Below are positions 12,110 through 49,416 of a stretch of DNA of 64,000 nucleotides, piece by piece. The stretch lies in NCBI GenBank assembly GCA_964607705.1, contig CAZSLI010000001.1, forward strand, positions 145,420 through 209,419. The letters are read 5' to 3'. How positions within the stretch are numbered: position 1 is the stretch's first letter; every line of letters begins with the position of its first letter. The position numbers and the translations under genes were made by a program. The notes beneath the pieces are model-generated. The model made no database searches, was not told the origin of the DNA, and saw nothing but the letters and a program-made list of their open reading frames with translations. The stretch comes from an uncultured Eubacteriales bacterium. GTDB taxonomy: Bacteria > Actinomycetota > Coriobacteriia > Anaerosomatales > PHET01.

Positions 12110-12705
12110 TGCCCGAGAACACGACACCTCTGACCGACGAGCAGGTGCTACAGGCACTGCGCGAGGCGAACGCAATCAAGAGCGGCCACTTCGTGCTCAC
12201 CAGCGGGCGGCACAGCGATACGTACGTGCAGTGTGCACGGATCCTCGAGGACCCCGCCCTCACGACGATGCTGGCCCGAACCGCTGTCGAGCGCTTGCCG
12301 GAAGACCTTGAGATCGACTTGGTAGCGGCTCCCGCAGTCGGCGGGCTCATCATCGGCTTCGCGGTGGCACAGGCGTTGGGTGTCAAGTTCATCTTCAGTG
12401 AACGCGAGGGTGGTGCGATGGTCTTCCGGCGTTCGTTCCAAGTGCCTTCCGGCGCCCGGGTCCTGGTGGTCGAAGACGTCGTTACCACAGGTGGGAGCGT
12501 TGCGGAGGTAGGCGCGCTCGTACGTGAAGCAGGAGGAACGGTTGCAGGTGTCGTGTCGCTGATCGACAGGGGAGGCGACAAGGCGTTCGACGACCCCTTC
12601 TGGCCTCTCCTTCGACTCGAGGTCGAGAGTTGGGACCCGGCGTCTTGCCACCTCTGTGCCTCCGGAGTGCCCGTCTATTCGCCGGGTTCCCGGCGCTTGG
12701 GGTAA
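12109..12705 (+). CDS. pyrE: Orotate phosphoribosyltransferase
   Basis: SGHFVLTSGRHSDTYVQC and PRPP loop VLVVEDVVTTGGS. The start overlaps the pyrF stop by 1 nt. Confidence 0.9.
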   Translation: MPENTTPLTDEQVLQALREANAIKSGHFVLTSGRHSDTYVQCARILEDPALTTMLARTAVERLPEDLEIDLVAAPAVGGLIIGFAVAQALGVKFIFSEREGGAMVFRRSFQVPSGARVLVVEDVVTTGGSVAEVGALVREAGGTVAGVVSLIDRGGDKAFDDPFWPLLRLEVESWDPASCHLCASGVPVYSPGSRRLG

Positions 12706-12826
12706 CAACCGCTTGGCATATCCGCAGGTCAGGCGTACGATGGGTTCGCCTTTGAGGGAATCGCTGCTCCATGAGGGGGGCGGCGTGAAGGTGTGTGAGC
12801 CCCGCCTGGGAGACGAGGAGGAACCG

Positions 12827-13135
12827 ATGGCACTACCGAATCTTTCGGACGCCGATCGCGCTGCAGCTCTGAAGAAGGCTGCGGAAGCGCGTCAGAAGCG
12901 TGCCGAACTGCGCGCCCAGCTGAAGAGCGGCAAGATGTCGTTCGCTGAGGTCATGAAGAAGGCGGACGATCCTGTCGTCGCGCGCATGAAGGTGTCGACG
13001 CTCCTGGAGTCCCTGCCGGGCTTCGGCAAGGCCAAGGCGCACAAGCTTATGACGGACCTCGAGATCTCCGAGAGCCGCCGCGTGCAGGGCCTCGGTGCCC
13101 GCCAGCGCGAGCAGCTCATGGAGCGTCTCGGCTAG
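12827..13135 (+). CDS. mihF: Actinobacterial integration host factor (mIHF)
   Basis: MALPNLSDADRAAALKKAAEARQKRAELRAQLKSG...LLESLPGFGKAKA. ATG 12827 lies 5 nt after GAGGAGGA. Canonical position upstream of gmk-rpoZ. Confidence 0.8.
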   Translation: MALPNLSDADRAAALKKAAEARQKRAELRAQLKSGKMSFAEVMKKADDPVVARMKVSTLLESLPGFGKAKAHKLMTDLEISESRRVQGLGARQREQLMERLG

Positions 13136-13159
13136 TCGCGTACGAGCGCAAGGAGCTTC

Positions 13160-13732
13160 GTGGCGAAGGGACACCTGTTCATAGTCTCCGGCCCTTCGGG
13201 AGCCGGCAAAGGGACCCTGGTGAAGGAAGTACTTCACCGGGTCCCTGACATATGGACCTCGATATCGGTGACAACGCGGGCGCCTCGTCCCGGCGAGGTT
13301 GAGGGCGTGCACTACTTCTTCATCTCGCACGAGCGTTTCGGCGAGCTCGTCGAACACGATGGTCTTCTCGAATGGGCTGAAGTACACGGCAACCGCTACG
13401 GGACGCCTCGCGCCGAGGTGGAGCGACGAATGGCCGCCGGCACGCAGGTCATACTCGAGATCGACCCGCAGGGCGCCTTTCAGGTGCGAGATCTCATGCC
13501 CGAATCCGTGCTTGTGTTCATCATGCCGCCTTCGACTGAAGAGCTGAAGCGGCGGCTTGAGAGGCGCGGGAGCGAGACTGAGGAGCAGGTGGCGGTGCGT
13601 ATGAAGACCGCCGAGCGTGAGCTCGAACTTGTGGGCAAGTACGACCATGTGATAATAAACGACGACGTTTCCCGCGCTTCAGAGGAGCTCGCGGACGTCA
13701 TCCGCTCATATGCCGACGACGAGGAGTCGTAG
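13160..13732 (+). CDS. gmk: Guanylate kinase
   Basis: P-loop SGPSGAGKGT, and TTRAPRPGEVEGVHYFF. Confidence 0.95.
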   Translation: MAKGHLFIVSGPSGAGKGTLVKEVLHRVPDIWTSISVTTRAPRPGEVEGVHYFFISHERFGELVEHDGLLEWAEVHGNRYGTPRAEVERRMAAGTQVILEIDPQGAFQVRDLMPESVLVFIMPPSTEELKRRLERRGSETEEQVAVRMKTAERELELVGKYDHVIINDDVSRASEELADVIRSYADDEES

Positions 13733-13737
13733 AAACC

Positions 13738-13989
13738 ATGTCAGTCATTAATCCCGAGATCGACGTTCTGCTCGAGAAGGTCGACTCGAAGTACACGCTG
13801 TGCATCATCTCGGCCAAGCGGGCCCGCCAGATCAACGACATGATCCACGGCGTTCGTGACCAGGCCCTGCTGACCATGCCCACGAGCGAGATCGCGAAGA
13901 TCACGAGCACCAAGCCGCTGTCGCTCGCCATGGAGGAAGTTGCGTCGACCGACGTGAGCTACGAGCGCACGAAGGACAGCTACAAGTAA
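13738..13989 (+). CDS. rpoZ: DNA-directed RNA polymerase subunit omega
   Basis: KYTLCIISAKRARQIN motif, 83 aa, downstream of gmk. Confidence 0.9.
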   Translation: MSVINPEIDVLLEKVDSKYTLCIISAKRARQINDMIHGVRDQALLTMPTSEIAKITSTKPLSLAMEEVASTDVSYERTKDSYK

Positions 13990-13990
13990 C

Positions 13991-15250
13991 GTGGCGCGCA
14001 TCTACGAGCGCGTCTGCCTGGTCCACTACCACGAGATCGGCCTCAAGGGCCGCAATCGTTCCGTGTTCGAGCGCCGTCTTCAGGACAACCTGGATGCGGC
14101 GCTTTCGGGTCTTCCGGTAGGCAAGGTGGCCCGCATCCCGTCCCGGCTCGTGGTCCGCGTTTTCGAGCCGGAGCGCATCGAAGAGATCGCCCGGCGCATG
14201 GCTGCCGTCCCCGGGGTGGTCGGTATCTCCCTCGCCTACAAGGCCGAGCTGACGCCTGCGGCGATGGAGGAGGCGGCGATCGCCGTCCTCGGCGATGCAG
14301 GTGCCTTCTCGAGTTTCAAGGTAGAGTCCCGGCGCTCGAACACCGAGTACACCGAGGGCACGCTCGACATGAACCGCCGCATCGGGGCCGTGCTTCAGGC
14401 GCATACCGGAGCGCGTGTGGACCTCACCGATCCGGACGTCACGATCTCGGTGATCGTCACGCAGAAGGACACCTACGTCGCCTCGCGCCGCGTGGTCGGC
14501 GTGGGCGGACTGCCCGTCGGCTCGGCGAGCTCGGTGGTGGCGCTGCTGTCGGCGGGTATCGACTCGCCGGTCGCCGCGTGGCGTCTCATGCGCCGCGGCG
14601 CCACCGTGGTCGGCGTCCACTTCTCCGGCCGTCCCGCCACCAACGACCTCTCCGAGCGGCTCGTGGCCGAGATCGGTGAGGTCCTCGAGCACACCGGAGG
14701 CCTCGGGCGAATCTACGTCGTGCCCTTCGGGGAGCTGCAGCGCGAGATCTCGCTCGCGGTCCCGCCGGACCTGCGGGTGTTGATGTATCGCCGGCTCATG
14801 ATCCGGGTCGCCGAGGCGATCGCGTCGGTCGAGCGCGCGAAGGCGCTGGTCACCGGCGAATCCCTCGGCCAGGTGGCGAGCCAGACGCTCGAGAACATAG
14901 CGGCCGTCGACGAGGCTGCGACGCTCCCGGTTCTGCGCCCGCTCATCGGCAGCGACAAGCTCGAGATCATTGGCGACGCGCGAAAGCTGGGCACCTACGA
15001 GATCTCGACGCAGGAACACGCCGATTGCTGCACCCTCTTCATGCCGAGGAACCCTGAGACGCACGCCAAGCTGCATTTCGTACTGAAGGCGTGGCAGGAG
15101 CTGGACGTTGACCGGATGGTCGCCGACGCGCTCGGCTCCCTCGAGTGGCTCGACTTCTCCTGCCCGACGTACCGGCCGCCGAAGCGCTGGCCGACGCCCG
15201 CCGGCGAAGGTGGTTGGAGCGCTGCCAAGCTTGAAGCGCGCGCCGAGTGA
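13991..15250 (+). CDS. thiI: tRNA 4-thiouridine(8) synthase ThiI (THUMP + PP-loop, no rhodanese domain)
   Basis: HYHEIGLKGRNR N-terminus, PP-loop LLSAGIDSPVAAW, C-terminal DCCTLFMPRNPET. Confidence 0.85.
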   Translation: MARIYERVCLVHYHEIGLKGRNRSVFERRLQDNLDAALSGLPVGKVARIPSRLVVRVFEPERIEEIARRMAAVPGVVGISLAYKAELTPAAMEEAAIAVLGDAGAFSSFKVESRRSNTEYTEGTLDMNRRIGAVLQAHTGARVDLTDPDVTISVIVTQKDTYVASRRVVGVGGLPVGSASSVVALLSAGIDSPVAAWRLMRRGATVVGVHFSGRPATNDLSERLVAEIGEVLEHTGGLGRIYVVPFGELQREISLAVPPDLRVLMYRRLMIRVAEAIASVERAKALVTGESLGQVASQTLENIAAVDEAATLPVLRPLIGSDKLEIIGDARKLGTYEISTQEHADCCTLFMPRNPETHAKLHFVLKAWQELDVDRMVADALGSLEWLDFSCPTYRPPKRWPTPAGEGGWSAAKLEARAE

Positions 15251-16353
15251 GCGAGCGGTTCCGGATACTGGCCCTCGAGCCCTATTACGGCGGTAGCCAC
15301 CGGGCTGTGCTCGACGGGCTTGTCGAGCGCATCGACGCCGACTGGACCGTGCTCACGCTGCCCGCCCGCAAGTGGAAGTGGCGGATGAGGGGCTCTGCCA
15401 TCACGATGGCGCGCCAAGCCGCTGCGCTCGCAGAGGTACGGGATACGCCCCAGCCGTTCGACCTTGTGTTCGCGTCGACCTTCCTCAACCTGGCCGAGTT
15501 CCGCGGACTCGCAGGGCCGAGAGTGGCGGCAGTGCCCGCGGTGGTCTACTTCCACGAGAACCAGCTCGTCTACCCCAACCGCCACAGCGCCGACTGGGAC
15601 TACCAGTTCCCGCTCACGAACATCACCACCGCGCTCTCCGCTGACAGCTGCATCTTCAACACGCGCTGGAACCTCGAGCAGTTCGTGGCCGAGATACCCG
15701 GCTTCATGAAGGAGTTCCCGGACCACCGGCCATCCGGTCTCGCCGATTTGATCGCCGAGAAGTCGCGCGTGATCGCGCCGCCGTTCGACCCGGCCCCCTT
15801 CGATACGGCGCCCCCCACTCGCGGCTCACGGTGCCGCATCGCGTGGCCTCACCGCTGGGAGCACGACAAGGACCCGGAGACGTTCTTCCGTGCCGTGTCG
15901 GCACTGGCGTCGGAAGGACTCGACTTCGAGGTGCTCGTCGCGGGCCAGAGCTTCCGCGAGACCGAGGGCCTGATGCGCGACGCCGCCGAAACGCTCGGCG
16001 ACCGGCTCGCTCACTGTGACGAACCTGCGGATCGCGCCGAGTACGCGCGACTCCTGGCCTCGGCCGACGTCGCCGTCTCCACGGCTAACAACGAGTTCTT
16101 CGGTCTCGCCATGGTCGAAGCATGCTACGCGGGCTGTACGCCGCTCGTGCCCGACCGTCTCGCGTACCCCGAGATCTACCCGGCTGGATACCGCTATGGC
16201 GACCTAGATGCGCTCGTCGCCCGACTGCGCGGCTGCGTCGCCGAACGACCCGAGCCGGGCTCGGCCCGGTCGCTGGTCGAGGGCTTCACATTCGACGCGC
16301 TTGTGCCAAAGTATGAATCGGCCTTTGCAGAAGTGGCGGCGGCACGCCGCTAG
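15247..16353 (+). CDS. DUF3524 + GT4 glycosyltransferase (GTDC1/QTMAN family)
   Basis: LEPYYGGSH, LPARKWKWRMRG, YFHENQLVYP (15547-15576), FNT and FPDHRP in the N-terminal half. GT-B 'Glycos_transf_1'-like C-terminal half (NNEFFGLAMVEACYAGCTPLVP). GTG 15247 overlaps the thiI TGA. Confidence 0.75.
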   Translation: MSERFRILALEPYYGGSHRAVLDGLVERIDADWTVLTLPARKWKWRMRGSAITMARQAAALAEVRDTPQPFDLVFASTFLNLAEFRGLAGPRVAAVPAVVYFHENQLVYPNRHSADWDYQFPLTNITTALSADSCIFNTRWNLEQFVAEIPGFMKEFPDHRPSGLADLIAEKSRVIAPPFDPAPFDTAPPTRGSRCRIAWPHRWEHDKDPETFFRAVSALASEGLDFEVLVAGQSFRETEGLMRDAAETLGDRLAHCDEPADRAEYARLLASADVAVSTANNEFFGLAMVEACYAGCTPLVPDRLAYPEIYPAGYRYGDLDALVARLRGCVAERPEPGSARSLVEGFTFDALVPKYESAFAEVAAARR

Positions 16354-16403
16354 TCGCGAAGGCTGCCGGGCCGCGGGTGGCGGCCAACTGTGGGAGGGGA
16401 CTC

Positions 16404-16718
16404 ATGGACGCACTCTCAGGACTGCCGCAGGCTGCGCTCCTCGGCATCGGATCACTCATCATTCTGCAGTTGACGCTGCAGGTCGTCGCTCTCGTGCAGC
16501 TCGTGCGCACTCCGGCCGAGCGCGTCACCATCGGCGGCCGCAAATGGGTCTGGGCGGTGATCATCCTGTTCGGCGAGATCGTTGGACCGCTGATCTGGTT
16601 CTTCGCCGGACGCACTGCCGCGCCGGTGGCCGACGTCGCCCCGAGCGCCCCGGTGTCGGCGCGTGCCGATGACGCCGCCGACGCCCTCTACGGCAAGGCG
16701 CCGCAGGACCAGCAGTGA
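16404..16718 (+). CDS. Small membrane protein with PLD-nuclease N-terminal (PLDc_N) domain
   Basis: RKWVWAVIILFGEIVGPLIWFFAGR. ATG 16404 follows GGGAGGGGA. The alternative track start is 16377. Confidence 0.6.
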   Translation: MDALSGLPQAALLGIGSLIILQLTLQVVALVQLVRTPAERVTIGGRKWVWAVIILFGEIVGPLIWFFAGRTAAPVADVAPSAPVSARADDAADALYGKAPQDQQ

Positions 16719-17635
16719 CCCGCGCGCTCGAGATCCGAGGACTGCGCAAGCGTTTTGGCGACTTCACCGCCCTCGAGGGCATCGACCTGTCGGTCGAAGA
16801 GGGAAGCGTCTACGGGTTCCTCGGCCCCAACGGCGCCGGCAAGACGACCACGCTGCGTATCCTGACCGGGCTCGCTCGCGCTGACGCGGGCTCGGTGTCC
16901 ATCTTCGGCGAGCAGCCGGGAAGCGCTGCCGCGCGGCGTCTTACGGGCTTCCTGCCGGACGTCCCCGGTTTCTACGCCTGGATGACCGCCGAGGAGTTCC
17001 TGCGCTTCGCAGGTGGGCTCTTCGGCTTCGACAAGCCCACGCTCGACGAGCGCGTGCCGCTCTTGCTCGATCTCGCCGGGCTCACCGACGTGCATGCCCG
17101 CGTGGGCGGCTTCTCACGTGGCATGAAGCAGCGGCTCGGGGTCGCCCAGGCGCTCGTGAACGCGCCCCGCCTTCTCATGCTCGACGAGCCGACGAGCGCG
17201 CTCGATCCGCTCGGGCGCAAAGAAGTCCTCGACATGATCACGTCGCTGCGCGGGCGCACCACGGTCTTCTTCTCGACGCACATCCTGGCCGACGTCGAGC
17301 GCGTGTGCGACACGGTCGCCATCCTCGATCACGGGCGCGTGGTCGCCGAGTCCGGCATCGACGAGCTCAAGGAGCGCTATGCCGCACACAAGCTCGTGCT
17401 GGAGGTAGGCGAGGGGAGCGAGGCGTTCTCGCGCACCCTCGCCGAGGAACCCTGGGTGACCACGGTCGCGACAAGCGACGATGGTGCCCTCGAGGTGTCG
17501 GTCACCGATCTCGAGGCTGCCCGGGTCCGCGTGCCGGCGTTGCTGGCTCAGAATGACACCCCCTTGCTGCGCTTCGAGAGCGGCGAGATCTCGCTAGAAG
17601 AAGTCTTCGTCGAGCTCGTGGGAGGTGGGCGCTGA
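16715..17635 (+). CDS. ABC transporter ATP-binding protein
   Basis: Walker A GPNGAGKTT, signature FSRGMKQRL and Walker B LLMLDEP. GTGA overlap with the upstream gene. Confidence 0.9.
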   Translation: MTRALEIRGLRKRFGDFTALEGIDLSVEEGSVYGFLGPNGAGKTTTLRILTGLARADAGSVSIFGEQPGSAAARRLTGFLPDVPGFYAWMTAEEFLRFAGGLFGFDKPTLDERVPLLLDLAGLTDVHARVGGFSRGMKQRLGVAQALVNAPRLLMLDEPTSALDPLGRKEVLDMITSLRGRTTVFFSTHILADVERVCDTVAILDHGRVVAESGIDELKERYAAHKLVLEVGEGSEAFSRTLAEEPWVTTVATSDDGALEVSVTDLEAARVRVPALLAQNDTPLLRFESGEISLEEVFVELVGGGR

Positions 17636-26405: not shown

Positions 26406-26511
26406 GCCGGCGTCCTTTCCGGTGTTGGGAGTGGGAACGGTGAGGTTTTCACCATAGCGTTTGTTCCCGTTGTTCGAGAGAGCGCGGTGCTGTCGTGAGA
26501 TACTTCATCAC

Positions 26512-27735
26512 ATGACCTCGAATCAACCCACCATAGTCGTCGGCGTCACCGGCTGCATCGCGGCGTACAAGTCGTGTGAGCTGGTGCGCACACTCCAGAA
26601 GGCCGGCTGCCGCGTGAAGGTCGTCATGACCGAGAATGCGACCCGCTTCGTGGGTACCGCGACCTTCCGAGCGCTCACGGGTGAGCCCGTGGCCGTTTCG
26701 CTGTGGGACGAACCGGCAGCCAAAGTGCATCATGTGTCCCTTGCCGAGGAGGCCGACGTCTTCGTGGTCGCCCCGGCGACCGCTAACGTGCTGGCGAAGA
26801 TCGCGACCGGCCGTGCGGACGACCTGCTGACGACCGTGGTGCTTGCGACCGAAGCCCCACTAGTCGTGGCGCCGGCAATGAACGTCCACATGTGGCGCGC
26901 GAAGGCGACCCGCGAGAACATCGCGACGCTGCGAGACAGCGGAGTGCTCATCGTGGAGCCGGAGAGCGGCGAGCTTGCATGCGGCGACATTGGGGAGGGT
27001 CGGCTGGCCGATGTGGCAGCGATCGCTGAGGCGGTGCTCGCCGAGGCGCGGCGTAGTCGTGACCTCGAGGGCGTCTCGGTACTCGTGACCGCAGGGCCCA
27101 CCGAGGAGCCGATCGATCCCGTGCGGTTCATCGGCAATCGAAGCAGCGGTAAGACCGGCTATGCGATCGCCGAGGAAGCCGCCCGCCGAGGAGCGGAGGT
27201 CACGCTCGTGAGCGGACCTACGGCGCTTCCCGACCCGTTCGGCGTGCGTGTGGTGCGGGTGACCACTGCGCTGGAGATGGAGGCGGCGGTCGACGCGAAT
27301 TACGACGTCGCCGACGCAGTGGTGGCTTCGGCAGCGGTGGCGGACTTCCGGCCCGAGGTCGCAGCGCCCGGCAAGCTGAAGAAGGCGACTGCGCCGGACG
27401 AGGTTCGGCTCGTGCGCAACCCCGACATTTTGGCAGGGCTGGGTGCGCGCAAGGGCGGCCGCCTGTTGGTGGGATTCGCCGCCGAGACCGGCGACGTACT
27501 CGGCGAGGCGCGTCGCAAGCTGGCCGACAAGAACCTCGACCTCGTGGTCGCGAACGACGTCTCCCGACCCGCGCTCGGCTTTGGCACCGACGCCAATCGG
27601 GTGTGGCTGGTCGCGGGAGAGGGCGCCGAGGAGCTGCCGGTCCTCGGCAAGAAGACGATAGCGCGCGAGCTGTGGGACAGGCTCGCTGAAGATGCTCGGG
27701 CTGCTGCGGTGGCCCGGATGGCGAAGAAGGAGTAG
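26512..27735 (+). CDS. coaBC: Bifunctional phosphopantothenoylcysteine decarboxylase / phosphopantothenate-cysteine ligase
   Basis: [55 protein letters not shown]. Confidence 0.9.
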
Positions 27736-28169: not shown

Positions 28170-28246
<77 letters not shown>

Positions 28247-32236: not shown

Positions 32237-32395
32237 GAAGCGGGGCTTCCTACTCGCGCAGTCGTGCCTCTATCGAGGCATCCTTCGGGGTGCCGAGGAT
32301 CCCCGGGGCCCCGTGTTTCCTCAATGCGCAACGGTGGGAGATTATGGACGGGTCGCTCCACTCGGCACGCGGCCTCACGAAGAGGAGGTCTTCAC

Positions 32396-32860
32396 ATGTC
32401 CATGATCGTCGACTTTGAGCACGTCTCGACCGAGGGTCTTGAGTCGTCTCAGCATCCCGAGGCGCTTGCGGGTCTCCGCGCCAACGAAGCGCGCTACTAC
32501 ATGAACAAGTTCAAGCACCCGTTCATGGTCACGCCCGCCGAGGATAGCCGCGACACGGTCGAGTACGTGCACCGGATACTCAAGCAGGAGCGCGACATAG
32601 AGATAGCGTCCCGGCCCTTGGAGACGTCGCACTTCGAACTCGAGGGCGTACGGCACGACTATGTCTTCTACGAGAGCGGCCTCTCCATCAACGTCATGTA
32701 CTCGATCGGCGACCCCAAGAAGCGGGCAGTCGGGTTCAAGCTGTCGGAGGGCATGGACGTGCCGGCCGAGCTCGAACAGAAGTTCAAGTTCGCCAGGCAG
32801 AAATCGAAGCTGGCCGGCACCATCAGGGGCTCATTCTTCGTGATCAAGAAGGAGTACTAG
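32396..32860 (+). CDS. Hypothetical protein (154 aa, no recognised domain)
   Basis: ATG 32396 lies 8 nt after AGAGGAGG. Lys-rich compared with its neighbours. Confidence 0.5.
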   Translation: MSMIVDFEHVSTEGLESSQHPEALAGLRANEARYYMNKFKHPFMVTPAEDSRDTVEYVHRILKQERDIEIASRPLETSHFELEGVRHDYVFYESGLSINVMYSIGDPKKRAVGFKLSEGMDVPAELEQKFKFARQKSKLAGTIRGSFFVIKKEY

Positions 32861-32887: not shown

Positions 32888-33802
32888 GTGCCCGATACTG
32901 CCTGGCCCGCCCTGTCGTACGCCGAGTGGGCACCCACGAAGAAGACGCTGCAGATGTGCGCGCAGATGATGGGCAAGACCAGGCTCGCGCTCGCGCCGCC
33001 GCAGCCTGAGTGGCTCAACGCGTGCCTCTACCTCGAACCTCGCGGGTTCACGACCGGATCCATGCCGCATGGTTCGCGGATCGTATCGGTTCGGCTGGAT
33101 CTGTTCGACCGAACGTTCGTGATCGAGACGAGCGATGGCGTCCGAGCCGATGTGCCACTGACGCAGCGCTGCGTGCGTGACGTTTGGGCCGACTACGTCT
33201 CCACGCTCGCACGTCTCGGCGTCAGCGTTCCATTCGACGAGACCCCCCAGGAGACCTCGGACACCACTAGGTTCTCCGAGAACGCTCAGGACTGCTCGAT
33301 AGAGCCCGAGGCGGCGCAGAAGTTCCACCGGTTGCTCTGCACGATAGATGGCATCTTCGAGGAATTCCGCGGTCGGTTCTTCGGCAGGACGGGTGTGCAG
33401 TTCTGGTGGGGCGCGTTCGATTTCGCGCTGCTTCTGTTCACGGGCAAGAAGCTGGATGCGCCCGAGGACAAGGGCTACATCATGCGCTACGACTTGGACG
33501 CCGAGCACCTCAACGCCGGATTCTGGCCCGGGGACGACACCTCGCCCGAACCCATCTTCTACGGCTACCTCGTCCCGCGGCCTGATGGCTGCGAGGTCGC
33601 GCCGATGTCACCCGAGCATGCTGCGTGGGTCGAGGCGATGCAGGAGTGGATCCTACCGTACGAATCGGTCAGGACCTGCGACGATCCTCGGCAGGCGCTG
33701 CTGGACTTCCTCGAGAGCGTCTATGACGTCGCGCTCACGCGTGGCGGCTGGGACGCAGAGGCGTTCACGTACACTGCGCCCCCGACGAAGCGTGCGGTCT
33801 GA
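32888..33802 (+). CDS. DUF5996-like protein
   Basis: WPALSYAEWAPTKKTLQMCAQMMGKTRLAL...EWLNACLYLEPRGFTTG resembles the DUF5996 N-terminus as I recall it. 304 aa. Confidence 0.5.
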   Translation: MPDTAWPALSYAEWAPTKKTLQMCAQMMGKTRLALAPPQPEWLNACLYLEPRGFTTGSMPHGSRIVSVRLDLFDRTFVIETSDGVRADVPLTQRCVRDVWADYVSTLARLGVSVPFDETPQETSDTTRFSENAQDCSIEPEAAQKFHRLLCTIDGIFEEFRGRFFGRTGVQFWWGAFDFALLLFTGKKLDAPEDKGYIMRYDLDAEHLNAGFWPGDDTSPEPIFYGYLVPRPDGCEVAPMSPEHAAWVEAMQEWILPYESVRTCDDPRQALLDFLESVYDVALTRGGWDAEAFTYTAPPTKRAV

Positions 33803-40782: not shown

Positions 40783-41796
40783 GTGCGCTACTCTGTACGC
40801 CGTCCAGCAATCCATGAAGCGACGTGCGGAGCGAAAGTGAACGAACCCGTTCCCTCGTGTAGCGACGAGGCCTCAGATCGGCTGAGGAGTCACTACCGAA
40901 ACCGGATCGTCTTGGTGACCGGTGCCGGTGGGTTCATCGGCGGCCATCTGGTCCGAGCCCTCATGCACTACGGGGCCGACGTCCAGTGCACCGCGTTGCC
41001 CGCCGAGTCGCTGTCGCACGGATGCGTCCACCGGGTCGATCTACGGGACGAGGATGCCATCGCGGATCTCGTCGCGCAGGTGCGTCCCGAGGCCGTCTTT
41101 CACTTGGCGGGGGTCGTCGACACGTCGAGCGCCGCAGCGCACGTCTCCCGCTCGTTGCAGGGCAACCTCGTCGCCTCAGTGAACGTGCTTCTTGCCGCCG
41201 AGGCCAACGGAGTCCCACGCGTCGTGCTGACGGGCTCTTCCGAAGAGCTCACGGGTGAGGCCGGAGCGACATCCCCTTATGCGGCGGCGAAGCTGTCTGT
41301 GCGCCCGTGGGTCGGCTTGTTCCGCGAGCGTTACGGGTTGGATGTCGTGACCTTGCGCCCCTTCATGGCGTATGGCCCGGAGCAGCCGCCTCATCGGCTG
41401 ATCCCCCAGGTAGCGCTTCACTTGTTGGCTGGCAACGCGCCCACGGTCAAGGACCCTGAGCGGATCTGCGATTTCACCTACGTCGATGACGTCGTGCAGG
41501 CGTTCCTGCTCGCAGGCATGGCCGATTCCGTCCCCGCGGGGGACTACGACGTCGGTACGGGCGTGGGAACCCGTGTTGCGGATGCGTGCGAAGGACTTCG
41601 TCGCCTTCTGCCCGAGAGCCCAGCCATCGAATACCTACCGCGACCGGCCTCGGTGGAGCCCCACATCGCGTTTCAGCACGGCGCGCGGATTCCGGGCTGG
41701 GCACCATGCGTGGCGCTCGACGCCGGACTTGAGAGAACGCTCAAGTGGTATCGCTCGAAGCAAGCGTCCCACTCCGAAGATGAGGAAGCACGATGA
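40783..41796 (+). CDS. NAD-dependent epimerase/dehydratase (extended SDR)
   Basis: VLVTGAGGFIGGHLV Rossmann motif, catalytic SPYAAAK (YxxxK). The alternative start is GTG 40837. Confidence 0.8.
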   Translation: MRYSVRRPAIHEATCGAKVNEPVPSCSDEASDRLRSHYRNRIVLVTGAGGFIGGHLVRALMHYGADVQCTALPAESLSHGCVHRVDLRDEDAIADLVAQVRPEAVFHLAGVVDTSSAAAHVSRSLQGNLVASVNVLLAAEANGVPRVVLTGSSEELTGEAGATSPYAAAKLSVRPWVGLFRERYGLDVVTLRPFMAYGPEQPPHRLIPQVALHLLAGNAPTVKDPERICDFTYVDDVVQAFLLAGMADSVPAGDYDVGTGVGTRVADACEGLRRLLPESPAIEYLPRPASVEPHIAFQHGARIPGWAPCVALDAGLERTLKWYRSKQASHSEDEEAR

Positions 41797-42827
41797 GCTG
41801 GTTGGTCACCGGTGGATGTGGTTTTGTCGGCAGCAACGTGGTCGACGCACTGCTGACTCAGGGGCAGGACGTCGTCGCGCTCGACAACCTGACCCGGCAC
41901 GGTTCCGAACACAACCTCGCGTGGCTGCGCGAGCGCCATGGGGATGGCTGGCGCTTCGTTCAGGCCGATACGCGCGACCAAGGCGCGGTCGACCAGGTCA
42001 TCGGTGACTTCAAGCCAGACACTATCGCGCACCTTGCGGGGCAGGTGGCCATGACCACCAGCGTCGCGGACCCGCGCCTCGACTTCGAGACCAACGCACT
42101 CGGCACGTTCAACGTCCTCGATGCCGTGCGACGGCTGTCGCCCGACAGCGGCGTCATCTACTCGTCCACCAACAAGGTCTACGGCGAGCTCGACCAGTTC
42201 GAGTACGTTGAGGGCCCGACGCGCTGGCTCATGCCATCTCACCCCAATGGGATCGCCGAGGACGTGCAGCTTGACGGTTACTCACCGTATGGCTGCTCAA
42301 AACTCGCGGCCGACCAGTACGTTCGTGACTGGCACCGTCTCTACGGTTTGAAGACTGCGGTCTTCCGGCACTCGTCGATGTATGGCGGACGCCAATACGC
42401 CACGTACGACCAGGGCTGGATCGGGTGGTTTTGCATGAAGGCACTCGAGATGGCGGATCCGGACGCGCCGAACTTCACCATCTCAGGAGACGGCAAGCAG
42501 GTGAGGGACGCCTTGCACGCCGATGACCTCGTGACGGCGTACCTCGCCGCCGGGGAGCACCTCGATGAGGTAGCCGGAAGCATCTTCAATCTCGGTGGTG
42601 GCCCCGCCAACGCGCTCTCGCTGCTGGAGTTGTTCGCCAAGCTTGAAGAGATCACCGGCAACACGATGCGCTACGACAAGCTTCCATTCCGCCAGGGTGA
42701 CCAACTCGTCTTCGTCGCCGACATCACGAAGGCCCACGATCTTCTCGGCTGGCAGCCGAGAGTCTCGTCCGACGAGGGGCTCGCTCGAATGGTGGAGTGG
42801 ACACAGGAGATGACCGGTGCCCTCTAG
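41793..42827 (+). CDS. NAD-dependent epimerase/dehydratase (CDP-paratose 2-epimerase-like SDR)
   Basis: WLVTGGCGFVGSNVV, SPYGCSKLAADQY. ATGA overlap with the upstream SDR gene. Confidence 0.8.
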   Translation: MSWLVTGGCGFVGSNVVDALLTQGQDVVALDNLTRHGSEHNLAWLRERHGDGWRFVQADTRDQGAVDQVIGDFKPDTIAHLAGQVAMTTSVADPRLDFETNALGTFNVLDAVRRLSPDSGVIYSSTNKVYGELDQFEYVEGPTRWLMPSHPNGIAEDVQLDGYSPYGCSKLAADQYVRDWHRLYGLKTAVFRHSSMYGGRQYATYDQGWIGWFCMKALEMADPDAPNFTISGDGKQVRDALHADDLVTAYLAAGEHLDEVAGSIFNLGGGPANALSLLELFAKLEEITGNTMRYDKLPFRQGDQLVFVADITKAHDLLGWQPRVSSDEGLARMVEWTQEMTGAL

Positions 42828-43554
42828 TCAGACCGGACCCGCCATCAGCGTCGTCATGCCGGCCTATCAGGAGGCCGAGAACCTGGCGCTGTTGCTTCCC
42901 CAGCTCAGGTCCGTGCTCGATTCGCTCGGCGTGAGCTGGGAAGTGCTCGTCGTCGACACGGCACAGCCGCGAGACGAGACGCCCGAGATCTGCGCCCGCG
43001 TGGGCGTCACGCACGTGCCTCGCGAGGGCGGGGACAGCTACGGCGACGCGATCCGCACCGGCATGGCGCGCTGCAGGGGTGAGCGGGTCGTGATCATGGA
43101 CAGCGATGGATCGCACGATCCCGAGTTCGTGCGCACGCTGTGGGAGCACCGCGACGACGCGGACATCGTCATCGCATCGCGCTATGTTCCCGGCGGCGAT
43201 ACACAGAACCCGTGGGCGCTTGTCGCCATGTCCAAGGCGCTCAACCTGGTCTTCTCGGCGGTCGTTCACCTGCCGGCGAAGGACGTGTCGAACAGTTTCC
43301 GCCTCTACCGGGGCGAGCAGTTGCGCTCGATCCAGGTCGAGTTGGACCACTTCGATGTGCAGGAGGAGCTCTTCGCCCGCCTGTTGTGGGAGTTGCCCGA
43401 GCCGGCGACGGTAGCCGAGGTACCATTCGCCTTCAAGGCGCGGCTTCACGGGAGCTCGAAGCGAAGCATGACCGTCTTCATCGCCGCCTACCTCGCCGCG
43501 ATGGTTCGCCTGCGCAAGATGCGTCGCGGGATCCGGGATGCGAGAGGGCGATGA
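42817..43554 (+). CDS. GT2 polyprenol-phosphate glycosyltransferase (Ppm1/DPM1/GtrB-like)
   Basis: ISVVMPAYQEAENL, VIMDSDGSHDP (DxD region). Overlaps the upstream stop by 11 nt. Confidence 0.8.
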   Translation: MPSSQTGPAISVVMPAYQEAENLALLLPQLRSVLDSLGVSWEVLVVDTAQPRDETPEICARVGVTHVPREGGDSYGDAIRTGMARCRGERVVIMDSDGSHDPEFVRTLWEHRDDADIVIASRYVPGGDTQNPWALVAMSKALNLVFSAVVHLPAKDVSNSFRLYRGEQLRSIQVELDHFDVQEELFARLLWELPEPATVAEVPFAFKARLHGSSKRSMTVFIAAYLAAMVRLRKMRRGIRDARGR

Positions 43555-45209
43555 GCCCCCGGCCCGATGAGCGTCGACGACGTCGAGGTCGGGAGCGGCT
43601 CACGTTCCCTGACGCGATCCTGGGCGATCCGGGTGCTCGGACAAGCCGAACTCTTCTGATCGTCACGCTGCTCACGGCTGCGGCGTTGTTTGCCGCGATC
43701 AAGTACCTGGGCATGCGCCAGTTCGGAGCCGAGGACGGCGGTATCACCGCGGCGATCGCCTACATGGTCAAGCTCGGATACGTGCCGATCCGGGACTTCG
43801 AGACCACGGGCTTTCCGCCGCTGTACATGCTCGCCGGTGGGTGGGCGTTCCGGATGCTCGGCACGCGCTGGGAATCCCTCGTCACACTTGCGGCACTCAC
43901 GAGTTCGATGGCGCTCGTGGTGCAGACATGGTTGGGCAGACGGGCGGGATTCTCGCCGGTCACGGCGATCGCGATCGCGATCGTCACCCAGTGCGCCACG
44001 TTCCTGCCACTCTCCAACTGGTGGTACAACCAGCTGACTTCAGTGGTGGGCGTGCTGTTCGTGACGGCGGCGCTGGCGTTCGCGCGCCAGCCCGAGGACC
44101 GGCTGAACTCGGCGTCGTTGCTGCTTACAGCGGCAGTGATCTCCTGGTGCAAGCCCAACGTCGCCGCACTGCTCCTGTTGGGCGTCGGAATCGTCATCGT
44201 GTCGTCTCACCGGCTACGCCGCCGAGGACTCGCGTTGATGGTGGGTGCCGCGGTGCTATCCCTCGCGGGGTTGGTCATCGTCGGACTGAGCCCGTCGGGG
44301 CTCATTTCCGAGTACTTGGGCGTTGGCGTCAGGCTGACACCGGGCAACTTCGTCACCTTCTTCCTGCTCAATGACAACCTCGACGTCATGCTCACCATGG
44401 GGTTGCTCGTCCCGGCACTTGCCGCGGGGGTCACCTCTCTCGTATTCGCGGTTCTCAAGCCGACGGATGCGCAAGCGGCAGGTCCCCGCGTTGCGCTGGC
44501 CGCACTGGCGGTGGCGACCGGTCTCGCCGCCATGGGCACGAACAACGATCACAACCTCGTCGACGCTCCTCTCATCTTGCTGGGATGTGTCGCCGTGGCC
44601 TGCGTCGCGTTCGGTGAGCGCGGCGAGCGCCGAAAGACGCGCCTCGCTGTGGCGTTGGCTCTGTCGTTCACGTTGCTCGGGCTGAGTGTCTACGGCACCG
44701 TGTCCGCCGGTTTCCGCTATCGCATCTACTCGGTGGGACCGGGGGCGTTTTGGGAGAAGACCGGTCTGTCGTCGTTGGGTGGAAGACCCATGCTTGCCGG
44801 TGTGAGCGCTGGTCCGGCTCTCCATACGACGCTTGCAGACATCCGAGCCACCCTGCGCGCCAATCCGGACGTCGTCGCGTCCGACGGCGTGTTCTTCGGC
44901 CCGCGGCTGCTCGTGATGTATCCCGAGTTCGGTGTGGCTCCGCCCAAGGGGCTGCCCACCTGGTGGATGCTCTATCGCGACGGCCGACCGCGGACAGCCA
45001 AGGCCGTGGGCCGTTTCGCCGAGGAGAAGCGCCCGCTCCTCATCATCTTCGGTGGGGACTACACCGACTTCCCGCAGTCACTGCGAGAGCTGATCCGCTC
45101 GCGTTACACGGCCTATCACTACGGCACGCTCACGCTCCACGTGCTCAAGGGCTCAGACGTGCGGGTGCCGAAGGGTGCGCAGCCCTTCAAGTGGGACGGC
45201 GGGAGCTAG
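43551..45209 (+). CDS. Polytopic membrane protein, putative GT-C fold glycosyltransferase (ArnT/PMT/YfhO-like)
   Basis: ATGA overlap with the GT2 stop. At least 10 hydrophobic helices, an acidic first loop (FGAEDGG) and a soluble C-terminal domain of about 170 aa. The track ORF start at 43140 is an out-of-frame extension inside the GT2 gene. Confidence 0.55.
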   Translation: MSPRPDERRRRRGRERLTFPDAILGDPGARTSRTLLIVTLLTAAALFAAIKYLGMRQFGAEDGGITAAIAYMVKLGYVPIRDFETTGFPPLYMLAGGWAFRMLGTRWESLVTLAALTSSMALVVQTWLGRRAGFSPVTAIAIAIVTQCATFLPLSNWWYNQLTSVVGVLFVTAALAFARQPEDRLNSASLLLTAAVISWCKPNVAALLLLGVGIVIVSSHRLRRRGLALMVGAAVLSLAGLVIVGLSPSGLISEYLGVGVRLTPGNFVTFFLLNDNLDVMLTMGLLVPALAAGVTSLVFAVLKPTDAQAAGPRVALAALAVATGLAAMGTNNDHNLVDAPLILLGCVAVACVAFGERGERRKTRLAVALALSFTLLGLSVYGTVSAGFRYRIYSVGPGAFWEKTGLSSLGGRPMLAGVSAGPALHTTLADIRATLRANPDVVASDGVFFGPRLLVMYPEFGVAPPKGLPTWWMLYRDGRPRTAKAVGRFAEEKRPLLIIFGGDYTDFPQSLRELIRSRYTAYHYGTLTLHVLKGSDVRVPKGAQPFKWDGGS

Positions 45210-46211: not shown

Positions 46212-46909
46212 ATCTGCGCGAACCGCGTTCCGACCACGCGCACACGCCCGAATCCTCGCCCGACCACGCGCACGACATCTACACGCTCGCCAACATCATC
46301 ACGATCCTGCGCCTGATCCTCGTACCGATCTTCTTCGCAGTGCTGATGAGCGGCCGCAACGATACGGTTGCCTTCATCCTCTTCGTCGTGGCGGCTTCCA
46401 CCGACTGGGTGGACGGCCAGATCGCGCGACGCACCGGTACCGTAACCGAGATCGGCAAGGCCATCGATCCGATCGTCGATCGGCTTCTGATCGCCGCCGG
46501 CGTGCTCGGCGTCTATCTCGAAGGCCGCGTGCCGTTGTGGATCCTCGCGGTCCTCATCTTGCGCGACGTGTTCCTCGGCGTAGGCGTCCTCTTCCTTGCA
46601 CGCCGAAGAGTTGCAGCCCCGCCCGTGAACATGCTCGGAAAGATCACTACAGCGCTTCTCCTGATCGGATTCTCAGGACTCATCCTCAACCAGCCGCTGG
46701 TGCCCGGACTCGGTGTCGTCGAGTCGCCTGCACTGCCCGGATGGGGGAGCTCGCCCGCACCCCTCGGCATCTGGTTCCTCTACGTCGGTATCCTGACGTC
46801 GCTCGCGACTGCCGCCATCTACACCGCTCGAGGACTGCACGCCTTGCGTCTCAAGAAGGCCGAGGACACGGCTGCGATCTCGCCCACGGATCAGGAGGCA
46901 ACACGATGA
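46205..46909 (+). CDS. CDP-alcohol phosphatidyltransferase (PgsA-like)
   Basis: [28 protein letters not shown] fits D(x)2DG(x)2AR...G(x)3D(x)3D. GTG 46202/46205 follows AGGAGGA and overlaps the corA stop. Confidence 0.85.
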
Positions 46910-49416
46910 AAGCCGTGATCATGGCTGGCGGCGAGGGTACCAGGCTTCGCCCGCTCACGTCGCTGCGACCCAAGCCGATGGTGCCCATCGTCAATCAACC
47001 GGTGATGGAGCACATCCTCGGCCTCGTGAAGCATCATGGGATCGACGACGTCGTCGCCACGCTGGCGTTCATGCCGCAAGTCATCGAAGACTACTTCGGC
47101 GATGGCGAAGAATGGGCGATGAGGATCGAGTACGCGATCGAGGAGACGCCGCTCGGAACAGCCGGTTCCGTCAAGAACGCCGAGAAATTGCTCCCGGATG
47201 GCGAACCGTTCGTCGTCATCAGCGGTGACGCGCTCACCGACATCGACCTCACCGAGGTCATCGAGTACCACAAGCGCATGGGCGGCGCGGTGACGATCGC
47301 CCTCAAGCGCGTGCCCGACCCCCTCGAGTTCGGCGTGGTCATCACCGCCGAGGACGGCCGCATCGAGCGCTTCCTCGAGAAGCCGACGTGGGGCCAGGTG
47401 TTCAGCGACCAGATCAACACCGGCATCTACGTTGTCGAGCCGTGGGTGCTCCGCGAGATTCCCAAAGATGTGAGCTACGACTTCTCGGCGGACCTGTTCC
47501 CCAAGCTCATGGAGCAGGGCCATGCGTTGTATGGCATCACGATGGACGGCTACTGGTGTGACGTGGGTAGCCGCGAAAGCTACCTTGAGGTCCACACCGA
47601 CATCCTCGACGGCAAGGCGAAGATCTTCGTTCCCGGAATCCACGCGCGTGAGGGACTCTGGGTCGCCGAGAACGCCACGGTCGAGCAGGGGGCCGTACTC
47701 GGCGACAAGGTGGTCATCGGAAACAATGCGAAGATCCGCGCCGGCGCGCGGATAGGGGACTACGTGGTCGTGGGCGACAACTGCGTCATCGGCGACGATG
47801 CCCGCGTGAGCCACTCGGTCATCTGGGACGACACCTTCGTGGGCAAGCAGTCGCGTGTCTCCGGTTCGGTCCTGTGCCGGCATGTCGACGTCCGGGCCCG
47901 CGCGGTGATCGACCTCGGCACGACGCTCGGCGACGAGTCCGTCGTCGGGCAAGGCGCGCACATAGGCGTTGACGTGCAGGTCTTCCCCTACAAGCGCATC
48001 GAGCCGGCCGCGACGGTCACGAGCTCGCTGATCTGGGAGTCGACGGCACTGCGGTCGCTCTTCGCCGACGGGGGCATATTCGGGCTCGTCGGCATCGACA
48101 TCACGCCCGAACTCGCCCTGAAGGTCGCCGAGGCGTTCGGTTCCCTGTTGCCCAAAGGCGGCCACGTGGTGGTCACGCGCGACACGTCTCGGGCCGCCCG
48201 CATGGTGAAGCGCGCCATGGTGGCCGGCCTGAACGCGACGGGTGTCAACGTGCGCGACCTGCGGGTCGCATCACCTGCCCTGAGCCGGTTCACCACGCAG
48301 AAGACCCGCTGCGTGGGAGGGATCCACATCGCCGTAGCCCAAGACGATCCTGCATCGCTCGAGATCCGCTTCTTCGACAAGAACGGCCTCGACATCGCAC
48401 CGTGGGAGCAGAAGAAGATCGAGCGTCTGTACTTCCGCGGTGAGTTCCGCCGCGCCTTCTTTGAGGACGTGGGGGAGATCATCTATCCCGCACGACCGCT
48501 CGAGTACTACACCGCCGCACTCGACGAAGCGGTCGATGCGGCCGGCCCCGGCGGCGCATGGCGCAAGGTGGTCGCGGACATGCGGTGCGGGGCCGCGAGC
48601 CTGGTGGTCCCGCAGGTGGCGCACTCCTGGTGCATGAACGCCATCGCGCTGAACCCGGTCATCGATACCGAGCAAGGGGGGCAGTGCGGCGAGGTGACCG
48701 CCGCCGCCGTCGAGATCCTCGCCCGAACGGTCGAGCTCTTCGGGGCCGACATGGGTGTCATCTTCGACAGCGGCGCCGAGCGGGTGCGTCTGATGACCGG
48801 CTCGGGTCGCGAGCTCGACGGCGACACGCTGCTGCACCTGGTGACTTCGCTGTGGTGCCGTACGCGCACCGACGTGGACGGCGCCATCGCTGTGCCGCTG
48901 ACCGCCTCCCTGGCTGTCGATCGCATCGCCGAGGAGCACGGCCGTGCCGTCATCCGCCCCGGACGCTCACGCAGGGCGCTCGCTCAGTCGGTTCTCGACG
49001 GCCGGGCGGTCTATGCCGGCGCGACGACCGGCGGATTCATCTTCGGCGACTTCTTCCCAGCCTTCGATGGCGTTCTCACCATCGGCATGATCGCTCGTAT
49101 GCTCGACGGACTGGGCACGAGTCTGGACGAGGCCGCGGCGGAGCTGCCCACCTTCTACAAGTCACAGATCGCAGTCTTCTGTCCCACCGACCGCAAGGGC
49201 ATCGTCATGCGTCGGGTGACCGAGGAAGCGAGTGGCGGCCGCGTCGACCTGACCGAGGGCGTGCGCGTGGTCTACGACGACGGGTGGGCGCTCGTCTTGC
49301 CCGACTCCACCGACCCCACGGTAGGCATCTGGGCGGAGGCCCAGACTGCCGAGGAGGCCGGTCGCCGGGCGGATGCCTGGCGAGACGTCGTGGAGGCGGC
49401 GATCGCCGGTTCGTGA
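46906..49416 (+). CDS. Sugar-phosphate nucleotidyltransferase + LbH + phosphohexomutase-like fusion (836 aa)
   Basis: [18 protein letters not shown], hexapeptide repeats, then a four-subdomain PGM/PMM-like region. ATGA overlap with the upstream stop. Track start 46537 is an extension inside the upstream gene. Confidence 0.85.

Follow-up and report, generated by a model that had tools for sequence, protein, structure and literature searches.

A 64,000-nucleotide (nt) stretch of DNA from an uncultured bacterium of the class Coriobacteriia (assembly GCA_964607705.1, contig CAZSLI010000001.1, positions 145,420 to 209,419; G+C 66%), referred to here as the window, encodes a glycosyltransferase of the tRNA-queuosine alpha-mannosyltransferase family (QTMAN, also known as GTDC1) directly downstream of thiI. 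The closest relatives of this DNA point to an environmental Coriobacteriia genome of the Anaerosomatales or OPB41 type. We propose that the product of the glycosyltransferase gene is a cytoplasmic retaining GT4 enzyme that would hexosylate queuosine (Q) at position 34 of tRNA (Q34), a reading to which we give a probability of about 0.5. Every conserved catalytic and donor-site residue of the family is present in the protein, and the gene stands in a housekeeping context of nucleotide, transcription, and tRNA genes, not in a cell-envelope one. Within this proposal we infer Q34 of tRNA as the acceptor, the donor sugar, and the synthesis or salvage of Q by this organism.

Two domains make up the protein (Table 1). 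The N-terminal domain matches PF12038 (QTMAN_N, formerly DUF3524) over nearly the full length of the profile, and PF00534 (Glycos_transf_1) matches residues 202 to 310 above its cutoff (30.0 bits vs 26.4; E 4.6e-7). An earlier note on this DNA, written by a model from the letters alone, had predicted both domains, the C-terminal one as GT-B/GT4, and had placed the protein in the GTDC1/QTMAN family; the profile matches, an identity of 40 to 41% to human QTMAN, and the presence of all family-invariant residues and of the lysine required by the human enzyme bear this out. The motifs it had read were also recovered in the translation, YFHENQLVYP at exactly the codons it had given, together with RKWKWRMR, YGGSH, FNT, and FPDHRP. 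The start of the gene is well defined: GTG 15247 is the most upstream start in the frame, and starting instead at V21, the next possibility in frame, would cost the protein its conserved first strand and the GGSH motif.

Table 1. Coordinates of the glycosyltransferase gene, its motifs, and the genes and sites upstream of it (window positions).
Feature	Position	Strand	Basis
QTMAN/GTDC1-family GT4 glycosyltransferase, 368 aa	15247..16353	+	PF12038 + PF00534
QTMAN_N domain (PF12038), residues 6-179	15262..15783	+	E 2.4e-59, 200.3 bits vs cutoff 25; profile positions 1-167 of 168
Basic/aromatic motif RKWKWRMR, residues 41-48	15367..15390	+	translation confirmed
Family signature YFHENQLVYP, residues 101-110	15547..15576	+	translation confirmed
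RWEHDKDPE motif with R203 and K208, residues 203-211	15853..15879	+	K208 opposite human QTMAN K296
EX7E motif (E283...E291, EFFGLAMVE)	16093..16119	+	translation confirmed
GTGA start/stop overlap	15247..15250	+	thiI TGA 15248-15250; glycosyltransferase GTG 15247-15249; read from sequence
thiI (tRNA uracil-4 sulfurtransferase)	13991..15250	+	TIGR00342 equivalog E 5.6e-105, 351.5 bits vs cutoff 264.5
rpoZ	13738-13989	+	Pfam RNA_pol_Rpb6 match
gmk	13160-13732	+	Pfam Guanylate_kin match
Actinobacterial IHF gene	12824-13135	+	NF041260 actino_IHF, E 1.4e-38
Sole sigma-70-like promoter match in 12600-17000	12713..12741	+	ahead of IHF gene; consensus match only

Conservation was assessed in an alignment of 58 diverse, bacterial-type family members, to which 10 eukaryotic QTMANs were then added. 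Among the 58, 16 columns show no variation, and a further 23 are conserved at 90% or above. Conservation of at least 90% in the bacterial-type and the eukaryotic sets alike is seen at 34 positions, all of which the window protein shares; P12 is the only position conserved in the bacterial set alone, and there is therefore no sign of divergence at the active site or the acceptor site. Many of the residues conserved from bacteria to human sit in the N-terminal domain (GGSH, WxWR, HENQxxYP, and FN[ST]), the acceptor side of GT-B enzymes and usually their variable half. Conservation of these N-terminal motifs, combined with the lack of any residue set that separates bacterial from eukaryotic members, is what would be expected if the acceptor were the same.

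The family-invariant residues of the QTMAN_N domain are S17, H18, W43, W45, R46, H103, E104, N105, Q106, Y109, P110, and N138. In the RKWKWRMR motif, W43, W45, and R46 are kept in 99% or more of the members, bacterial and eukaryotic alike, and position 48 is K or R in 84%; a role for this motif in nucleic-acid binding is conceivable. H103, E104, Q106, Y109, and P110 of the family signature are invariant both in the 58 diverse members and in 120 of 120 homologues from the Coriobacteriia clade. Residue 139 (15661-15663), next to the invariant N138, is Ser in at least 90% of the diverse members and Thr in the window protein, as the earlier note had recognized in reading FNT where the family has FNS; among the 120 clade homologues it is Thr in 99 and Ser in 21, making this a clade-typical conservative substitution. 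On the C-terminal side, R203, D207, K208, and P210 are invariant in the 58 diverse members, as is E291, with E283 at least 90% conserved. We take the EFFGLAMVE segment to be the EX7E donor-site motif of retaining GT4 enzymes. The R203/K208 pair, the EX7E motif, and the other motif residues are invariant across the 120 clade homologues, and the glycosyltransferase is under purifying selection across the Coriobacteriia clade.

For the comparison with the human enzyme, a QTMAN sequence served as the probe and retrieved an identical database protein (P0121), which shares 96% identity with macaque proteins that carry the name tRNA-queuosine alpha-mannosyltransferase. The window protein is 40% identical to P0121 in the N-terminal domain and 41% in the C-terminal domain (BLAST), and the only large difference is a low-complexity interdomain linker of about 100 residues in human QTMAN that the window protein does not have. 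Window K208 aligns with human K296 in an ungapped BLAST segment. The K296A variant of human QTMAN fails to restore mannosyl-queuosine (manQ) in QTMAN-knockout cells (bioRxiv 10.64898/2026.06.28.735034).

An AF2 model of the window protein, built on the family alignment, predicts a two-Rossmann GT-B fold (pLDDT 95.6, pTM 0.93). Its closest structures in the PDB are retaining GT4 GT-B enzymes (MshA, GlgM, glycogen synthase, BshA, and PimA; TM-scores 0.65 to 0.73, identity 11 to 18%), which fits an alpha linkage. No QTMAN structure was found in the PDB, either by sequence or by fold.

As a model for its function, we take the protein to be a retaining QTMAN-family glycosyltransferase of the GT-B/GT4 type, soluble and catalytically intact, whose most probable activity is that demonstrated for the human enzyme. 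The family-specific N-terminal domain would bind a tRNA carrying Q at wobble position 34 (tRNA-Asp in humans), the C-terminal domain would hold the nucleotide sugar, and a hexose would be transferred onto the cyclopentenediol of Q. By analogy with the human enzyme, the donor may be GDP-mannose and the linkage alpha. A possible source of this donor lies 30 kb from the glycosyltransferase gene, where a 959-residue fusion (46537-49416, plus strand) joins a sugar-1-phosphate nucleotidyltransferase, an LbH domain, and a phosphomannomutase/phosphoglucomutase. The best NCBIfam match of its nucleotidyltransferase is mannose-1-phosphate guanylyltransferase, at 276 bits vs a cutoff of 440, and the fusion could supply GDP-mannose. 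Sugar epimerase/dehydratase genes (40783-42827) lie beside it, as does a GT2 gene (42817-43554), which is followed in the same sugar cluster by a 552-residue open reading frame (ORF; 43551-45209, plus strand) with coding-like G+C at third codon positions (GC3) and no Pfam match at E<=1e-4.

The distribution of the family was surveyed by an exhaustive HMMER scan of 1.84 billion cluster representatives, in which 3,396 clusters reached E<=1e-3 and 938 of these E<=1e-30. Most are proteins of 355 to 400 residues without the linker, and those with a named source are from Planctomycetota, Brocadiia, Thermoanaerobaculia, and Coriobacteriia. Judged from the sequences recovered, most of the diversity of the QTMAN family is bacterial. 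Some bacterial members are labeled 'tRNA-queuosine alpha-mannosyltransferase domain-containing protein' at NCBI, and many homologues carry the automatic JGI label 'glycosyltransferase involved in cell wall biosynthesis', a generic COG-level name. The window protein is a new, uncharacterized member of a family that is already known and publicly annotated at the domain level. The earlier note's view of this family as essentially eukaryotic calls for correction, since most of its diversity is bacterial and public bacterial annotation already carries the QTMAN name. An origin from phage or defense systems was rejected: in 2.9 million viral contigs the family is all but missing, with a single weak match that covers the C-terminal domain only, and a match of the window protein to PF20706 ('GT4-conflict') is under its cutoff.

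Neighbor-joining trees of the top 150 representatives (100 bootstraps) place human QTMAN in a group with 16 further sequences plus two marine ones that are unidentified, split from all else in 95 of 100 replicates. Two of the 16 are confirmed invertebrate QTMANs, one from a rotifer and one from a flatworm; the eukaryote-type linker is present in most of the others. The window protein and its relative P0241 form a separate deep branch (100/100). These trees are unrooted, and the direction of transfer between the domains of life is not settled by them.

The earlier note had also described the ORF upstream of the glycosyltransferase as a genuine ThiI with THUMP and PP-loop domains and had read the GTG start of the glycosyltransferase as embedded in the thiI stop. 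Both observations are correct: the TIGR00342 equivalog matches well above its cutoff, PF02568 (PP-loop), PF22025 (ferredoxin-like), and PF02926 (THUMP) all match, and the overlap is plain in the sequence (Table 1). No rhodanese domain was found in the window ThiI by Pfam and NCBIfam profile scans. On this arrangement the note had built its main argument, that a shared operon with thiI gives concrete grounds to propose tRNA or nucleoside glycosylation in this bacterium, and this argument is not borne out by the wider sample. Among 83 Coriobacteriia-clade loci that hold sequence upstream of the glycosyltransferase, the order pyrD-pyrF-pyrE-IHF-gmk-rpoZ-(thiI)-glycosyltransferase is strongly conserved. 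The thiI gene is upstream in 73 of the 83 and within 150 nt in 65, with gaps mostly between -16 and +35 nt, so tight or overlapping junctions are typical of the clade. In the remaining 10 the glycosyltransferase follows rpoZ directly. One of these loci (L055:7840-7971) retains between rpoZ and the glycosyltransferase a 44-residue remnant 61% identical to the ThiI C terminus, with thiI otherwise absent at the locus, which points to loss of thiI by deletion with the glycosyltransferase kept.

Unrelated DNA separates thiI from the glycosyltransferase at eight clade loci, and the junction looks like an insertion hot spot. At two of them (L011:7187-7991 and L042:7182-7983) a ribbon-helix-helix antitoxin followed by a PIN-like toxin, as judged from sequence, sits exactly between the two genes, at L048 and L060 an ORF of about 130 residues without assigned function occupies the junction, and at L058 there are 6.5 kb of unrelated ORFs. 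Partner genes were considered as an explanation of these inserts and set aside, the inserts being instead toxin-antitoxin modules, a small ORF, and 6.5 kb of unrelated ORFs.

Outside the clade we gathered 77 non-redundant loci with homologues 37 to 50% identical (628 kb of flank; 45 loci with at least 1.3 kb upstream), and thiI was found near none of them. Thus, the pairing with thiI is not peculiar to this genome, the case that the earlier note had named as refuting its idea, but it is confined to one clade, which agrees with that condition in spirit: it is present at 73 of 83 clade loci, lost in 10, interrupted in eight, and seen at 0 of 77 distant loci. The thiI adjacency is one inherited arrangement in one class-level clade and not recurrent evidence, and the link of the glycosyltransferase to the IHF-gmk-rpoZ housekeeping string is no less stable than its link to thiI. 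Because the thiI link is lineage-specific, the tRNA-glycosylation hypothesis rests on homology, in the form of sequence conservation, and not on context; the coupling to thiI adds little or nothing to the functional case.

All-against-all BLAST of the flanking ORFs at the distant loci revealed no common neighborhood, the largest recurrent neighbor family being present at five loci. The leading families in Pfam counts over 122 immediate and 88 second neighbors (DnaJ 5, DUF1178 4, TerB 4, and FtsY/SRP54 4) reflect synteny within sublineages. At one distant locus, on a 2.3-Mb contig, a convergent downstream gene (L082:9136-9615, minus strand) encodes a Nuc_deoxyri_tr3 protein (nucleoside 2-deoxyribosyltransferase-like), which was seen in that lineage only.

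Several observations weigh against Q34 as the acceptor, and most of them equally favor an enzyme of the same family and chemistry that acts in bacteria on another soluble cytoplasmic acceptor, with Q34-tRNA specificity having arisen only in the eukaryotic branch. Such an acceptor could be a free 7-deazaguanine or nucleoside metabolite, another tRNA nucleoside, a small metabolite, or a protein. The separate 95/100 split that holds the eukaryotic enzymes does not include the window protein, whose function is therefore extrapolated across a deep branch. Acceptor and donor specificity of glycosyltransferases can shift with few substitutions, and among the solved structures nearest to our model are GT4 enzymes whose acceptors are small and soluble (for example, MshA, BshA, and GlgM). 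The isoelectric point (pI) of the window protein is 5.2 (family median 6.4), and acidic proteins are atypical among RNA-binding proteins, although RNA binding is still possible and pI is a weak, non-decisive proxy for it. In the window and 2.0 Mb of sequence from 166 loci, no Tgt-like sequence was found by tblastn with an E. coli Tgt probe, a sample too small to count either way on whether this organism has Q, and no preQ1 riboswitch was found in the window (Rfam). Likewise, no recurrent Q-pathway gene was seen among the 210 flanking ORFs of the distant loci (the nearest two on each side), where families were listed only if represented by at least two ORFs, so that singletons would not appear. 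Our literature search found no paper that characterizes a bacterial family member or assigns its acceptor, in agreement with the earlier note, and the literature we found on glycosylated Q describes animals only (bioRxiv 10.64898/2026.06.28.735034). Set against a different acceptor are the 34 positions shared by bacteria and eukaryotes, which include the acceptor-side motifs of the N-terminal domain, where a changed acceptor would be expected to leave clade-specific differences; P12 alone is specific to the bacterial set. In general, 40% identity over both domains is also usually enough for the same substrate class. We therefore regard another acceptor as a serious possibility that is nonetheless rather doubtful, and Q34 hexosylation as our working interpretation.

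Two further explanations appear much less probable. Assignment to an ordinary cell-envelope GT4, active in lipid, polysaccharide, or cell-wall glycosylation, would agree with the JGI name given to many homologues and with the small PLDc_N membrane protein and ABC transporter genes that follow the glycosyltransferase gene in the window. That name is generic, however, and the downstream ABC transporter lies at a variable distance in clade relatives and is missing from many loci. The protein does match the NCBIfam equivalogs for MshA, EpsE, and GlcN-PG synthase, but at 19 to 21 bits vs cutoffs of 400 to 480 and only through its generic C-terminal domain, so the orthology to a characterized lipid or polysaccharide GT4 that the earlier note had named as evidence to the contrary did not emerge. 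The N-terminal domain is QTMAN-specific and unlike that of any characterized envelope GT4, and no polysaccharide cluster was seen around the gene in the window or at the 77 distant loci, where GT2 proteins account for 2 of the 122 immediate neighbors. An envelope role is consequently improbable. Even less credible is a functional partnership with ThiI, in which the glycosyltransferase would act on a product or substrate of ThiI, for example to form a glycosylated s4U8, or would share a tRNA complex with it. The GTGA overlap and the short or overlapping gaps at most of the 65 clade loci with thiI immediately upstream speak for such a partnership, but 10 clade members keep an intact glycosyltransferase without adjacent thiI (only the 44-residue remnant at L055), toxin-antitoxin modules or other unrelated DNA separate the genes at eight loci, and thiI was not found near any of the 77 distant homologues. 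Moreover, U8, the site of ThiI action, is far from the anticodon loop where QTMAN acts. Any co-transcription with thiI probably reflects shared housekeeping expression and no mechanistic partnership.

Within the window, the only sigma-70-like promoter match in the interval examined lies ahead of the IHF gene, and no terminator-like site was seen by consensus matching between this match and the end of the glycosyltransferase gene. These consensus matches hint that the IHF-gmk-rpoZ-thiI-glycosyltransferase string may be co-transcribed. In many Actinobacteria coaBC directly follows rpoZ; in the window it is found about 12 kb beyond rpoZ (26461-27735), with thiI, the glycosyltransferase, the PLDc_N protein, the ABC transporter, a DJ-1-like ORF, a 4Fe-4S protein, an aminotransferase, a GGDEF protein, and a 2-oxoacid:ferredoxin oxidoreductase in between. 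Farther downstream, the single tRNA gene of the window, tRNA-Pro(GGG) (28170-28246, plus strand), is also its sole Rfam match. A 198-residue ORF (32264-32860, plus strand) has coding-like GC3 and no Pfam match at E<=1e-4, and the ORF at 32888-33802 (plus strand) encodes a full-length DUF5996 protein (E 2e-86).

Mannosyl- and galactosyl-queuosine are regarded as vertebrate or animal modifications, and the enzymes that make them were reportedly identified in 2023. To our knowledge, queuosine itself is made only by bacteria. The existence of a large, strongly conserved bacterial QTMAN family suggests either that glycosylated Q has gone unnoticed in poorly studied phyla or that the ancestral acceptor was of another kind, and either outcome would extend the catalogue of bacterial tRNA and nucleoside chemistry and explain the origin of the animal enzyme. 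Tentatively, and as something a little short of an even call, we suggest that hexosyl-Q, resembling manQ, is a native bacterial tRNA modification; that the family is primarily bacterial (Planctomycetota, Brocadiia, Acidobacteriota, and Coriobacteriia), with the eukaryotic enzyme as one offshoot; and that the Coriobacteriia gene, expressed with rpoZ and thiI, makes hexosyl-Q. If true, this would notably widen the range of a modification now regarded as confined to animals and would make RNA glycosylation a native bacterial trait.

GluQRS (YadB), the glutamyl-Q tRNA(Asp) synthetase of Proteobacteria, is the one bacterial enzyme we know of that further decorates the cyclopentenediol of Q34, and it acts on tRNA-Asp, the same nucleoside and the same tRNA as human QTMAN. 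It has the truncated catalytic domain of a class I aminoacyl-tRNA synthetase and forms an ATP-dependent glutamyl ester, not a glycoside. Although its fold is unrelated to that of the window protein and its chemistry is different, its example shows that bacteria do hypermodify Q. The second queuosine glycosyltransferase, QTGAL (B3GNTL1), belongs to a glycosyltransferase family different from and unrelated to that of QTMAN. This tRNA-queuosine beta-galactosyltransferase is an inverting enzyme whose donor is UDP-galactose and whose product has a beta linkage at the other hydroxyl of Q34 in tRNA-Tyr (bioRxiv 10.64898/2026.06.28.735034). Like QTMAN it glycosylates Q34 from a nucleotide sugar, and it shows no similarity to the window protein.

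The characterized retaining GT4 enzymes (MshA, BshA, GlgM, PimA, and glycogen synthase) have in common with the window protein the GT-B fold and the EX7E and R/K donor-binding motifs, but their identity to it is only 11 to 18% and their N-terminal acceptor domains are unrelated in sequence. Much closer are the bacterial DUF3524/QTMAN-domain proteins of Planctomycetota, Brocadiia, Thermoanaerobaculia, and others, which at about 360 to 390 residues have the same domains and invariant residues and are 35 to 50% identical to it; the Coriobacteriia proteins differ in forming a deep branch of their own, and the rpoZ-thiI-glycosyltransferase arrangement is found only in Coriobacteriia. Human and other vertebrate QTMAN (GTDC1) differs from the window protein in its long linker, in its place within the eukaryotic split, in having Ser and not Thr at the position of residue 139, and in that the window gene lies in a bacterial operon-like string. 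The two nevertheless share PF12038 joined to a GT4 C-terminal domain, 40 to 41% identity, all 34 conserved residues, and the lysine at K296/K208, and the retaining GT-B fold predicted for the window protein is consistent with the alpha linkage of the human product.

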